Numbered from the stretch's first letter, positions 35,322 to 46,562 are shown. The stretch: DNA of 64,000 nucleotides from a candidate division WOR-3 bacterium (GCA_039803205.1 JBDRYB010000008.1:8506-72505), one strand, 5' to 3'. Translations and numbers: made by a program. The notes: generated by a model not told the origin, from the sequence alone.

Positions 35322-35742
35322 AATTAGAATTATAACACGGGAAGCCGGGAGCTTTCAAGAGATCAGGGGTTGAGAGATCATTGCAAATTTTGGCCAATCT
35401 CCGGGTATTGCGGACTGGCCCCACCATAATAGCCCTCCATGGTAAAATATGGGCGTGAAACAAACAACCAAGAGGAGCAAAAGGAGGTTCAAGGTTAAGA
35501 AAGATACTATTGCTCCAGATGTTCAATAACATTCATGGTTTATCCATAGGGAATAACCCACAGGCAATTCACGGCCAGATGGACTTCATGGTCGCTCTCC
35601 AGCAATAGAGCTCGGCTCATTCCGGCCCGGTGATCTGGGGTTATAACTCCCTAAAGATGAGAAGGGAAAGTTCTATCTCAAGCTAGCCAAAAGTTGCAGA
35701 GACCCCTGGCCTGTCCACTATAATTTGTTGATCGGAGGTTTT

Positions 35743-36087: not shown

Positions 36088-37347
36088 CTATCGGATAACA
36101 ACTTTTCTCACAACCTCTGTGCCGCCCTTCTCCATTTGAACGAGGAAAACCCCAGCTTTCATCCCCCTTATTAAGAGCTCCTCGGCCTCGGTTTCACAGG
36201 CAAAGAGCCTTTTCCCAGTGGCATCGTAGACCCTCACAGATAGGCCAGGAGGCCCTTTGATCTTTATGGCGTTGCCGAGGCCAATAGCTGTCCATCTGGT
36301 TGTCTCCTCCTGCTTCTGGTCAGATACCAGCGCTTTGGCCCCTGTTTTCTGCCAGAATGTCGTGTAGCGGTAGGGAGGAATGGCAAAGGCTGTATCAGTG
36401 GATGTGGCATAGGCAGAGTGAGTGTGGGGAGTTTTTGCGCCACCCCCACCGAGATCATCAACCCATGCGCCTCCGCCGCTTGGTTGGACGGTAATGGAGC
36501 TGATCCCGTGGGCGTGGAAAAGTGAGCCACCGGCCGTAAGAGCGTTTGCCGGCGTGCACCCGCGCGGAAAGCGTCGGCCCGCGTTCAGTGTATCAAAGCT
36601 TTCCCATGTCCCTATCTCTGAGCTCCCTGACGGCGGAGCGTCAAACATGGCTATGGCGCCCACTGGAACATCCTCTATCCACGCCTCGTTTCTGGCGAAT
36701 ATAACATGAACATAGGGAGGGAGGTTGTCAGAGGTGGCGGTAGAACCGGTAAAATTGTGCGTATGGCAGCCAGAGACAACGGCACTTCCTGAATTAAAGA
36801 TCATGGGAGTTGGATCACCTGTGGATCCCGAGAAGGTGTGAAAATGGGTTGTGCTTCCACTCTTGGCCCAGGGCGTAAGAGAACCCCTTGGGAAGGAGTC
36901 AACCAGGATTACGGTCCAGCCAGGAGGAGGCTCCTGGGTGAACATCATCACGACTCCAGCGGGAAGCCCTGTATCCTCCTGTGGTTTTCTTATAACCACA
37001 AAATTCCGATAGGGCGGGATGTGGGATGAAGCATTTATGGTGCCGGTCGACCAGAAGCTATGCGTGTGATATGCTGGGGCCGCGAGGGTTCCACCTCCAC
37101 CTCTACCGTGTATACCAGAACCACCTGCTTCAATGGAGCCATATATCCTCGTGTGGTTGTGGGTGTTTGACCCACCTGTTATCCCGACCGAATCCCCCGG
37201 GCATCCGCGGGGAAACCTTCCCACGAAGGATGAGTCTACGACCCAGCCGTTTGGCGTGGATGGCCGAGTTGTTTGGATGATCCCAGGGTATTCCCAAAAA
37301 ACCATCATCCCATCGGGAACCGTTGAGAGAACAAAGGCTATTAACAT
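36088..37347 (-). CDS. Secreted protein with three tandem phage tail-collar/HxH fibre-tip units and T9SS-like C-terminal domain
   Basis: Three repeats of P.G...F/W...GW...FPRG...GS..HxH...HTH...PPY; CTD VRVYDATGK...AGVFLV...RKVVIR; SD GAGGAGG. Confidence 0.8.
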   Translation of the reverse strand: MLIAFVLSTVPDGMMVFWEYPGIIQTTRPSTPNGWVVDSSFVGRFPRGCPGDSVGITGGSNTHNHTRIYGSIEAGGSGIHGRGGGGTLAAPAYHTHSFWSTGTINASSHIPPYRNFVVIRKPQEDTGLPAGVVMMFTQEPPPGWTVILVDSFPRGSLTPWAKSGSTTHFHTFSGSTGDPTPMIFNSGSAVVSGCHTHNFTGSTATSDNLPPYVHVIFARNEAWIEDVPVGAIAMFDAPPSGSSEIGTWESFDTLNAGRRFPRGCTPANALTAGGSLFHAHGISSITVQPSGGGAWVDDLGGGGAKTPHTHSAYATSTDTAFAIPPYRYTTFWQKTGAKALVSDQKQEETTRWTAIGLGNAIKIKGPPGLSVRVYDATGKRLFACETEAEELLIRGMKAGVFLVQMEKGGTEVVRKVVIR

Positions 37348-37377
37348 GTCGCCCTCCTCGTGTGCAAAATTATAAAG

Positions 37378-45000: not shown

Positions 45001-46562
45001 AAGAGGCACTTGTAAAAGCTAGAATCGAAGTTCTGACACTCAATATATCCGTTCCTGGAAACCGAACGCGATGTGATGAAGCCCCCGCGCGGCGCTGTGG
45101 CGAAATTGGTCATTAGGGCCCCCTTGTCAAAAGCGCCGACGAGGCAGCTTATGACCGAAGCAACCGGCATGTAGTCCCAATTGGAGAGGGTATCAACTGT
45201 CTCGGGGAATATGCCAGTGCCAATGTGCAGGATGTCATATGAACCGTGGCTTACAGAAACCCAGAAACCCGTTCCCCTCCGGAGCTCAGCGAATATGGTG
45301 TCAAGATATATGTTTCCGAACCGGTGATAGAACTCAATGGTATCAATGCAGTCCGGAAATTGCTTCTGTATGGCCTCGCACACCAGCTCGCCGTCCTGGG
45401 GGGAATACTCCCATAGTTGTGGGCCTATGAATATTGCCCTCTTGACATTTGGCCCTGGCCTGAACTGATACTGGAAGAACTTATCGGAAAAGAGCTCGGC
45501 TTCCTTGAGGTTCCTCGCGTAGGCCCTTCCTATGAAGACCTCGGGGAGGTAGTCCGTGCTATCGGTCGGGCACTCGCCATAGTAAGCATCCCCGTCCGCG
45601 TTCCAGCTCCCGTCAAGGCCAGCGTAATACCACTCGCACGGGACAACGGATTCGCCCTCTGATGAGAACCCTGTCTCAACATAGCGGGTAGGAACATGTT
45701 CAGGGGAGCCGCCGAGAAGGACCCAAACCACTCCCCATTCCTGGTATGCTTCCCGTATAAAGTTCCTTATCTTGTCCGAAAGGTCAACTCCATCGTAGTG
45801 AGAAGAGATCCACTCCGTCGTAGCAACAGCAGTCCTTATTCCCATGAGGTTCTTATAAAGGAGGAGCGGGGCAAACCCAGGAAGAAGCGCTTGATCCGTT
45901 ATCAGTAGGTAGTCCACGGCAGTTGAGAGATCGCGAGGCCTGGTGTTCTCAGGGGGCAGGGGGCCGTTGGTTATGGCTGGGCGCAGGATATATGCCTCAG
46001 GGTTGACGAAGACAGCGCTCGCGAGGTCCTCCCTGACGCTGGCTCCGAGAGCGGTCATCCGCTTTGGATAGACCCCGGCGTAAGGGGTTGGCTCTGTCTC
46101 TATCTCAACCTCTATTCGGCTGTAAAACCTAACCTTGCCCTCTGCTGGAGAATACTGGACCGGATAAAGCCTCAGCATGGCAACTGCCTGGCCGCAGAAC
46201 CAGCCCACTCCTGAGAGCTCGGCCAGAGGGCCTGGCAGAAAACCCTTGAACGAATAGTATTCCTTGGACTCAGGTATGAATCCGTCATCCCCTATTTTCA
46301 CGGCTGATTGAGATGGCATGAGCCTCGCGCGCTCGGCTATCACATCCCCTCCCTGGGCTTTGACCCTTATGCCCTTAGCGGTCATCCCAAGGGGTAGCAG
46401 GATGAGCCTCTCGTATGCGGGTATGCTCGGCGCGCCGGAGTCCGCTGTCCACTCGGTTTCCCCTGAGATGACCGTGTATTTCCCCTCCGTCTTTAACGCA
46501 GGGGGGGTGAAATCAAAGCTGAAGCTCATCCCCCCAGCAATAGCGATGTTCAATAGGATCAT
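42027..46562 (-). CDS. Gingipain-like C25 cysteine peptidase with propeptide, Ig/FnIII domains, FG-GAP repeats and T9SS-like C-terminal domain
   Basis: GAPSIP propeptide, IRNFIREAY, EVFIGR, catalytic SHG and SC, TLGDP, multiple D.DGDG..E repeats, CTD YDPTGR...SGVYFLRL. Confidence 0.88.
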   Translation of the reverse strand: MILLNIAIAGGMSFSFDFTPPALKTEGKYTVISGETEWTADSGAPSIPAYERLILLPLGMTAKGIRVKAQGGDVIAERARLMPSQSAVKIGDDGFIPESKEYYSFKGFLPGPLAELSGVGWFCGQAVAMLRLYPVQYSPAEGKVRFYSRIEVEIETEPTPYAGVYPKRMTALGASVREDLASAVFVNPEAYILRPAITNGPLPPENTRPRDLSTAVDYLLITDQALLPGFAPLLLYKNLMGIRTAVATTEWISSHYDGVDLSDKIRNFIREAYQEWGVVWVLLGGSPEHVPTRYVETGFSSEGESVVPCEWYYAGLDGSWNADGDAYYGECPTDSTDYLPEVFIGRAYARNLKEAELFSDKFFQYQFRPGPNVKRAIFIGPQLWEYSPQDGELVCEAIQKQFPDCIDTIEFYHRFGNIYLDTIFAELRRGTGFWVSVSHGSYDILHIGTGIFPETVDTLSNWDYMPVASVISCLVGAFDKGALMTNFATAPRGGFITSRSVSRNGYIECQNFDSSFYKCLFANPGLGIGGHDAGSRITMAPGAQYCRSMTRYLFLSYTTLGDPGLFPYGCTIGRFHITAPASLSVGPQSFTVKVEDFLGNDIQGASVVVYKKGEIYEIRQTDALGEAHFNDVVIPSAGPLLLGVHKIGYAPLIDTINVIASGPWLTVTSASPQDADRDGYAEAGETLRLSYVIKNGGSAPATGVLAKISSASPYITILDSQMILPKIGPNSSLRTLGFSMKVASPLPDSQEHILINFTFIPLIIPNDTVGFDTAGFDVFSPVLRKWVRQMDVDSLSLLVRFKPGISNRGWADAEGITLSLQSPSPGITIIDGSASVDRIPKRGYLEPWNTPDGFTFRLSDINALEGAELSVIVSDPSGPFDTLRYTIHRNLPATGRLWGAPDSAAVTVFWEPPLGGTPNAYLVYRAEDVLGPYRLISYEPPHPATFTDYTVQPYKIYYYRVCAVDSSFNPGPLSEPVLLATYLKKEPYWPIVVLGGEHSCPVMCDLDPQYPGNEMVVAGVDRIQDSSFVRVFAYHYDGTPVNGWPVNIPSTDKKAWIADDIAAGDIDGDGKIEIAIRVFFDDRLFVLRSNGTIMPGWPKWVGWAQDYTQTPSLADLDGDGKLEVICAQGDIIYAFRYDGTGFLDQSGIFFRHPIGGGGFVTPSVADLDQDGNLEIVAGYAKTPSSEIWALEANGTPLPGFPCYLQRSGLSPSIAVGDLIPNILGDEIVLLGIFQSAKSLLCIGSNGQILWNVSSSFGMEASPSLGDVDNDGVPEVIVVGQHELLVYDGDGTPMPAYGAKLKTAHYTSASAADVDGDGKTEYFFGDYGGFLYGMREGGYVEGFPIPLGLYNWAVPQLGDFDNDGRAEIIQRNANGFIYAFGFYRFPPRWSNLDWRTYKHDLWRTGWIGADSVIAKQEARLRTSENENEPPVLSWGPTVIKGSGAITLSLRGKSMVRFRVYDPTGRVAEEPCSGILPAGLYRIPWGKDLPSGVYFLRLELGEEVFGTKSLILR

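Follow-up and report, generated by a model that had tools for sequence, protein, structure and literature searches.

A single-chain triple collar-needle module with a T9SS-like tail in a WOR-3 bacterium: a probable exported binding head akin to phage fibre tips

We analysed a window of 64,000 nucleotides from a candidate division WOR-3 bacterium (GCA_039803205.1, JBDRYB010000008.1:8506-72505), in which an ORF called on the minus strand with an ATG start (36088..37347) encodes a protein of 419 aa, hereafter P0001. An RBS-like GAGGAGG is located 6 bases 5' of the ATG (37353..37359, minus strand), and a scan for promoters and terminators near the gene returned matches at chance level only. Among the neighbours, a nitroreductase, a DUF3160 protein and a C25 peptidase have family matches in Pfam, and from their translations we take others to be MazG-like, CdsA, prfA, pdxS, rbfA and truB. 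P0001 has no match to PHROG, and a single-unit profile finds three matches in the whole genome, all of them inside this ORF. With its housekeeping neighbours, no PHROG match and a single copy in the genome, the gene is not part of a phage or tailocin cluster, which agrees with an earlier note on this DNA stating that a phage context is missing. The GC3 of the gene is 0.56 versus 0.59-0.69 in six neighbours (pdxS left out), a difference too weak to call horizontal transfer. The window DNA occurs in hot-spring metagenome runs, all from one study, and no RNA run is listed as containing it. At 35608-35702 of the window there is a short element that is repeated elsewhere in the genome and is also present in a second contig, one end of which is loose; contigs from all four runs end there. 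The site of the P0001 gene is variable: in the same-genus genomes G053 (L038:47-3887) and G052 (L039), other genes follow the nitroreductase or MazG-like gene, a 1072-aa ORF in the case of G053.

P0001 starts with a short hydrophobic leader lacking K and R (aa 1-9, 37321..37347), which is probably an export signal, followed by three tandem units, a linker and a C-terminal domain (CTD), all encoded on the minus strand. Unit 1 (aa 10-121, 36985..37320; 76 bits against the unit profile) comprises a short collar and a needle hairpin with HxH motifs at H63/65 and H94/96; unit 2 (aa 128-221, 36685..36966; 82 bits) has them at H168/170 and H195/197, and unit 3 (aa 227-335, 36343..36669; 65 bits) at H278/280 and H308/310. 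There are exactly six HxH motifs in the protein, three more histidines (80, 109 and 214) lying outside them, while FPRG occurs at 45, 152 and 260, and PPY at 111, 210 and 324. Local alignments between the units give z = 10.3, 12.3 and 7.7, and 0 of 1000 shuffles match the score in any pair. The motif positions and these z-scores (7.7-12.3) bear out the earlier description of three related units in tandem with two HxH motifs apiece. The linker (aa 336-351, 36295..36342) is predicted with low confidence (pLDDT <50 at 342-345) and is altered in a second allele described below.

The CTD (aa 352-419, 36091..36294, minus strand) resembles the type A sorting domain of T9SS substrates in both profile and fold. 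It scores 22.9 bits against TIGR04183, where the cut-off is 23, and 26.5 bits, above the cut-off, in the genome scan; its match to Pfam Por_Secre_tail (E 0.004) is below the cut-off. It superposes on the CTD of RgpB with Z 10.7 (rmsd 1.4, 65 residues) and on that of RemA with Z 9.5, Fn3 domains scoring nearly level with these T9SS domains (Z 9.4). What had been called a T9SS/FlgD-like domain is thus T9SS type A-like, on the borderline TIGR04183 score and the RgpB and RemA fold. One relative, WOR-3 by its NCBI name, has a CTD identical to that of P0001, which makes WOR-3 very likely as the host. P0001 differs from the known type A substrates RgpB, RemA and NucA in its host, which is WOR-3 rather than Bacteroidota, and in its unusually short leader without a basic n-region. 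Leaders of this kind are common in the genome: 36 of the 49 CTD proteins examined, with starts set by a simple ribosome-site rule, begin without K or R in the first 6 aa, which may represent an unusual signal-peptide type (for example at 37321-37347 and at the start at 46562 of the window).

The genome also encodes a SprA homologue (396.6 bits, cut-off 200; G000:C15:31399-36753), four PorV-family proteins above the cut-off and five matches to C25 peptidases, and it contains 125 CTD matches. The presence of SprA and PorV homologues speaks for a T9SS-type export route, as suggested beforehand. Models of GldM and GldN have no match in the genome, and they are likewise silent in the controls; the T9SS of WOR-3, with SprA, a PorV family, 125 CTDs and no GldM or GldN match, is possibly reduced or divergent. 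In the proposed route, the short leader would carry the chain over the inner membrane, and the CTD would then direct it through a SprA/PorV-type translocon. Export as a monomer would be a plausible reason for cells to keep the module in its fused form.

P0001 has five direct relatives, one of which (P0006) led to a set of 74. Searched against 1.84 billion representatives, a profile of 68 proteins matches 4153 clusters at E 0.001, of which the best 150 were inspected, and 640 clusters at 1e-30. The named members belong to Dehalococcoidales (Chloroflexota), Saccharibacteria and other Patescibacteria, one Woesearchaeote (archaea) and WOR-3. A strongly hydrophobic stretch lies near the N terminus in 149 of 196 Met-starting proteins, and the domains that flank the module include Ig, Fn3, DUF2341, LamG, PKD, CARDB and PEGA. 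The family is uncatalogued, in that the module matches no Pfam, PHROG or NCBIfam model except in P0265 and P0270 (Collar) and P0070 (Gp10_C). The fused triple is not peculiar to this bacterium, being found in phage tail proteins and in thousands of further proteins. In the WOR-3 phylum a match occurs in 10 of 272 genomes, and in 0 of the 2 other genomes of the window's genus. One WOR-3 genome (G062, L040:317-2891 and L041:4400-5608) has three genes for a triple with CTD, two of them forming a tandem pair whose starts are identical and whose tips differ. In the minimal members P0245 and P0207, the triple is accompanied only by a signal peptide and a membrane anchor at the C terminus.

Almost throughout the family, units occur in sets of three. 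We counted them in 211 proteins using the single-unit profile and a rule that rejoins units split by an insertion, and found 176 with three, 18 with 3+3 and five with six units (199 of 211). Of the other 12, seven are fragmentary or truncated, four are divergent proteins with long needles, which count as three units under a looser profile, and one has three dispersed units. As the 211 proteins came from triple queries, the count was repeated with a single-unit alignment as the query: 52 of 61 matches then had 3, 3+3 or 6 units, and the remaining nine are one 3+3 protein with a long insertion, two fragments, five divergent triples (by eye) and P0266, a true single-unit fibre, in a search whose scoring favours multi-unit proteins, so that single-unit ones are under-counted. 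Neither count contains a complete protein with 2, 4 or 5 units. The linkers between units have a short, fixed length (median 6 and 4 residues), and the units are specific to their position, 312 of 330 held-out units being assigned to the right one. As to the earlier question whether homologues always have three units plus a CTD, the threes are borne out by these counts, and a triple with CTD is present in every complete WOR-3 member inspected. A single triplication as the origin of all members is not established: in P0001 the position profiles suit units 1 and 2 but not unit 3, and the other WOR-3 group (L004, L007, L013) also departs from them. Long-needle triples with more HxH motifs per unit exist as well (P0265, P0268, P0270, P0271), with 12 motifs in P0268 and P0271 and 21 in P0270, the length of the needle changing jointly across the three units.

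Covariation indicates how the units pack against each other. We applied mean-field coupling analysis to 219 triplets (effective number about 200), and 30 of the top 50 couplings were between units, compared with 1 of 50 when units were permuted among proteins. The top-100 overlap was 11, 11 and 9 for the cyclic blocks (1-2, 2-3 and 3-1) versus 0, 0 and 3 for the anti-cyclic ones, where 1.2 was expected. In the cyclic blocks, the returning strand and the PPY segment of one unit couple with the FPRG segment and the outgoing strand of the next; in addition, the three units are mutually coupled through the first strands of their collars. Neither independent beads nor an open solenoid predicts the closure from unit 3 to unit 1.

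Structure prediction gives a similar picture. AlphaFold2 models the whole P0001 with a pLDDT of 85.9 and a pTM of 0.75, and aa 9-336 as one rigid body with a pLDDT of 88.9 and a pTM of 0.85, low confidence being confined to the tip loops, an insert in unit 1 and the linker. When the units were submitted as three chains with two Zn, the complex scored 0.81 against 0.28 for the best of three controls, on a scale where 116 of 157 solved pairs attain the mark, compared with 2 of 215 mismatched ones; contact agreement between runs was at least 85% and partner pLDDT at least 82. In this complex, unit 3 contacts unit 2 at its returning half and unit 1 at its outgoing half, which is the same cyclic order, although the pass may reflect a likeness to solved fibre trimers. 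The covariation, AlphaFold2 and complex tests share common alignments, and they are therefore not independent. By prediction, then, three protomers are intertwined round one axis (covariation ring, pTM 0.85, 0.81 versus 0.28); they are not separate chains as in known fibres, but three unlike, mutually coupled units in one ORF. The proposal that triplication lets one chain supply all three protomers is well supported by the unit counts, the cyclic covariation, the rigid model and the predicted reassembly, and we regard this one-chain architecture as highly probable. We saw no sign of independent beads, variable unit counts, an obligate homotrimer or a want of collar likeness, which the earlier note had named as grounds against its proposal, the assembly being judged on models of the single chain and of cut units.

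The 12 HxH histidines are each conserved in 88-100% of the 219 triplets. In T4 gp37, each of seven irons is bound by equivalent histidines contributed by all three chains, and replacing histidine by alanine is lethal (PMC6957217). By analogy, the first HxH motifs of the three units would form one six-His site and the second ones another. The putative collar-proximal layer A consists of H63/65 (37153-37161), H168/170 (36838-36846) and H278/280 (36508-36516), spanning 36508..37161, and the putative distal layer B of H94/96 (37060-37068), H195/197 (36757-36765) and H308/310 (36418-36426), spanning 36418..37068, all on the minus strand. This assignment is based on the geometry of T4 gp37 (PMC6957217) and on the coupling of H168 with H280, one of the top couplings; the strand register deduced from covariation places layer B closer to the tip. 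Layer B is intact in 201 of the 219 triplets and layer A in 135, being damaged in at least one unit in the other 84. Correlated loss of histidines between units is significant for A2-A3 (with kinship ignored), one of the three layer-A pairs, and not for the 8 other pairs. Site A by the collar and site B just below the tip would together staple the needle, with Fe or Zn, by homology, as the metal in both.

Neither P0001 nor its single units match Pfam Collar (PF07484) or Gp10_C (PF21939), and searches of PDB sequences with P0001 and with alignment A2 gave nothing useful. In alignment A2, 1 of 68 members matches Collar and 1 of 68 Gp10_C, both below the cut-off. However, Collar is matched above its cut-off by two relatives with triples, P0265 and P0270 (28.5 bits, cut-off 24), P0265 at the same time matching the unit profile at E 2e-16, and P0070 passes Gp10_C (31.5 bits, cut-off 27). 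Hence the phage tail collar domain proposed in the earlier note is not found by a direct Pfam match, but the likeness holds via these three relatives. By Atlas features, the top rank is a mostly viral cluster of 309 aa (0.95; TM 0.82 over residues 14-324), followed at 0.92 by a viral cluster with 11% Collar and at 0.91 by one of Gp10_C. The structural matches of unit 1 are weak, both to C24 (6OV6; Z 2.8, rmsd 3.5, 105 residues, 20% identity) and to the gp34 arm of A-1(L) (8KEC, residues 158-379; Z 2.3, rmsd 3.4, 97 residues, 29% identity). The single-unit profile hits the tail fibres 9QGO and 7Z47 at E 0.04-0.05, the same level as antibody noise, and it is not significant against T4 gp12 and gp10. 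It scores 11.6 bits against T4 gp37, above all 500 shuffles, largely from HxH-rich stretches, and -8.7 bits against the gp34 arm, where 825 of 1000 shuffles score as high. Foldseek found no match to the triple model in PDB at E 0.001, and in a VIA-wide fold search the best hits (Z 4.7) were generic barrels. These failures do not demonstrate a new fold, as intertwined trimers are represented in the libraries by their single chains. The kinship of P0001 with tips of the gp37/gp10C type would accordingly be a transitive one, resting on the relatives and the weak structural matches.

The comparison with T4 gp37 (2XGF; collar D10, needle D11), to which the C-terminal domains of gp12 and gp10 are related, is nevertheless instructive. 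The N- and C-terminal segments of gp37 form the collar, into which the needle is inserted out and back, and like P0001 it has HxH doublets on both arms and a variable tip, together with the intertwined protomers that are predicted for P0001 (PMC6957217). Both gp37 and gp10 follow the motif order of the unit, IP.G.I...P.GW ... RG ... HxH ... HxH ... N.PY..V, and by eye a unit of P0001 is a collar from which the helical insert is missing, near gp10-C. In contrast, gp37 is a homotrimer with seven HxH motifs, whereas P0001 is one chain of three unlike units with two HxH motifs each, lacks the helical collar insert of Pfam Collar as well as a phage or virion, and carries a T9SS-like tail. C24 (from a Bizionia prophage), the gp34 arm (from cyanophage A-1(L)), SU10 7Z47 and 9QGO are all trimers of separate chains with needles longer than those of P0001, 9QGO having short-collar motifs in common with its unit. 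The gp34 arm has been described as gp37-like and binds host cells (PMC10966104). The virophage DSLV2 has a heterotrimer, described in 2025, in which, as predicted for P0001, three unlike collar-needle protomers build one asymmetric tip; its tail protomers group by position and LPS is bound (PMC12724248). However, DSLV2 uses three genes and three chains (PMC12724248), while P0001 is a single, cell-borne chain; three adjacent one-unit genes are absent here, there being one gene and no further unit in the genome.

The best fold matches are Pas28 and Pas29 of the Actinoplanes phage phiAsp2 (Foldseek E 2e-17 and 5e-17). Like P0001, each has three tandem units per chain; unlike P0001, they have four HxH motifs per unit (12 per protein), stand in a phage tail context and are uncharacterised. 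The GenBank record, in the part available, mentions HXHY motifs, raises a receptor role of Pas29 as a possibility, and is silent there on the triple architecture. The genes pas28 and pas29 are adjacent (L002:7273-13991), and phiAsp2 is a cultured system carrying one-chain triples. A phage contig (L001:2951-7064) has three adjacent genes that each encode one C-terminal collar-needle unit, a candidate heterotrimer and a candidate intermediate before fusion. A scan of viral contigs with P0071 found nothing and one with alignment A1 a single locus; a metagenome scan with P0001 and a tblastn search of the L028 triple against phages were also without match. Viruses thus have the module in one-gene, three-gene and fused forms. 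Since one-chain triples also occur in phage tail proteins (Pas28, Pas29 and the mostly viral Atlas cluster), the notion of a domestication peculiar to this bacterium has to be abandoned.

In every unit, variability is highest at the tip (3.2-3.3 bits per column versus 1.7-2.1 in the collar). Tip loops consist mostly of small residues, with T, G, S and A at about 15% each, and in WOR-3 tips aromatic and charged residues are conserved within an allele. Compared with P0001, P0003, along with its cluster, shares the CTD (67/67) and the first 11 residues but only 23 of 78 residues (29%) between the HxH pairs, whereas P0002 shares 52 of 78 there and has a more distant CTD (36/68); these patterns are those of a mosaic. 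In run X3 of the same study, a contig of 1969 bases has near-identical flanks and CTD with all three needle segments replaced, namely segment 1 (aa 56-126, 36970..37182), segment 2 (aa 156-224, 36677..36880) and segment 3 (aa 252-307, 36427..36592; all minus strand). The same run also has short contigs of the window type, the observation resting on contigs from one study. In some relatives (P0094) a whole Gly-rich domain is inserted in unit 2 alone, an asymmetry impossible for a homotrimer. The three different loops and these unit-2-only inserts support, as a predicted architecture, the asymmetric tip that the earlier note derived from the unequal loops.

Whole payloads are exchanged as well. 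A comparison of five proteins shows that Dehalococcoidia use the scaffold formed by the N- and C-terminal parts of P0006 also with LamG plus DUF2341, Kelch or DUF2341 in place of the triple, and genes of this scaffold type adjoin SipW and TasA-like genes; a unit match is absent in 16 of 17 scaffold loci, several of them short or cut. Operons with SipW, a TasA/camelysin-like gene and a scaffold with interchangeable payloads are found at L017:4687-10004, L021:5288-7844, L022 and L025, and their gene content looks like that of an undescribed fibre with modular tips. In a Kazan (Patescibacteria) genome, a WxLIP/LysM gene precedes the gene of the triple, and WxL pili with modular tip adhesins offer a comparison for this locus (10.64898/2026.10.17.759780). 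There (L028:2058-8625), a WxLIP_PGBD match (30.9 bits, cut-off 27.3) and LysM are joined in one gene next to the triple, whereas a 2026 preprint states that the full WxL pilus system is restricted to Bacillota (10.64898/2026.10.17.759780).

Taken together, P0001 most likely presents three different tip copies on one metal-stapled needle, whose tips are exchanged between strains like a phage host-range module. Each unit would contribute one collar sector and one out-and-back hairpin, and the units would follow one another about a pseudo-three-fold axis (1>2>3>1), so that the strand returning from one unit pairs with the outgoing half of its successor. One chain would in this way be a short version of a trimeric tip of the gp37/gp10C type, and the three different loops, adjacent at the tip, would form an asymmetric, exchangeable recognition surface, the target of which is probably a cell-surface glycan or protein. 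We put the probability of this full explanation, an exported one-chain triple-tip binding head, at about 0.6. Because of the variable tips, the P0003/P0002 mosaic, the X3 allele and the swapping of payloads, a binding role is itself rather probable.

The alternative that survives best is that the one-chain needle is a passive surface knob or coat whose tip varies in order to evade phages or predators. The variability of the tip and the exchange of alleles fit evasion as well as binding, the tip loops are chiefly of small residues, and many of the 125 CTD matches in the genome are probably coat proteins. We nevertheless consider this unlikely, since the module takes the same slot as the LamG and Kelch payloads, homologous folds bind receptors (PMC6957217, PMC10966104, PMC12724248), and aromatic and charged residues are kept within WOR-3 alleles. 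Still less credible is a decoy, that is, a captured phage head secreted to shield the cell's own phage receptor, even though the fold is of phage type, phage tail genes contain one-chain triples, and both the patchy presence (10 of 272 phylum genomes) and the turnover of alleles at a variable site would suit it. Most relatives embed the module in long Ig/Fn3/DUF2341 stalks or in pilus-like operons, which suits outward reach, and by P0001 no defence genes were noticed within the window.

Very improbable, too, is a secreted metal scavenger or sequesterer with the 12 histidines as its functional sites: they are conserved and the source is a hot spring, but such histidines are axial and structural in T4 gp37 (PMC6957217), layer A is damaged in 84 of 219 triplets, adjoining transporter genes were not noticed, and it is the tip, not the histidines, that evolves fast. 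Least probable of all are independent beads or a whole-chain homotrimer pairing like units, for although the solved relatives are all separate-chain trimers (PMC6957217, PMC10966104), the directional cyclic coupling of unlike units including 3>1, their occurrence in threes, the linkers of 4-6 residues and the single-chain pTM of 0.85 speak against both.

Our preferred reading of P0001 as a binding head can be extended, tentatively, to the family. The triple tip would then be a general recognition head of uncultured prokaryotes, shared with phages, that is plugged into the display system of any lineage (WOR-3, Dehalococcoidia, Patescibacteria, DPANN archaea), be it a T9SS-like tail, a SipW/TasA fibre, a WxL-like pilus, a giant stalk protein or a membrane anchor, its tips being swapped as a cassette between strains and setting partner specificity much as phages shift host range. 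In the open-access literature we found no account of a collar-needle domain tripled within one chain, while subscription papers and supplements could mention one. What is added here is the near-bare WOR-3 form with its T9SS-like tail, the cyclic covariation, the phage triples, the payload swapping and the exchange of alleles.

Collar-needle fibre tips are classically homotrimers that require chaperones. The one-chain form completes the series of one gene, three genes and a fused gene, and it frees the tip loops from symmetry. With 419 aa, P0001 is a nearly bare module with two natural alleles that differ in their tips, and lineages about which little is known carry the module on their surface proteins. 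If the extended reading is true, the triple tip becomes a candidate for host recognition by episymbionts, and as a monomeric scaffold independent of chaperones it would offer three programmable loops.
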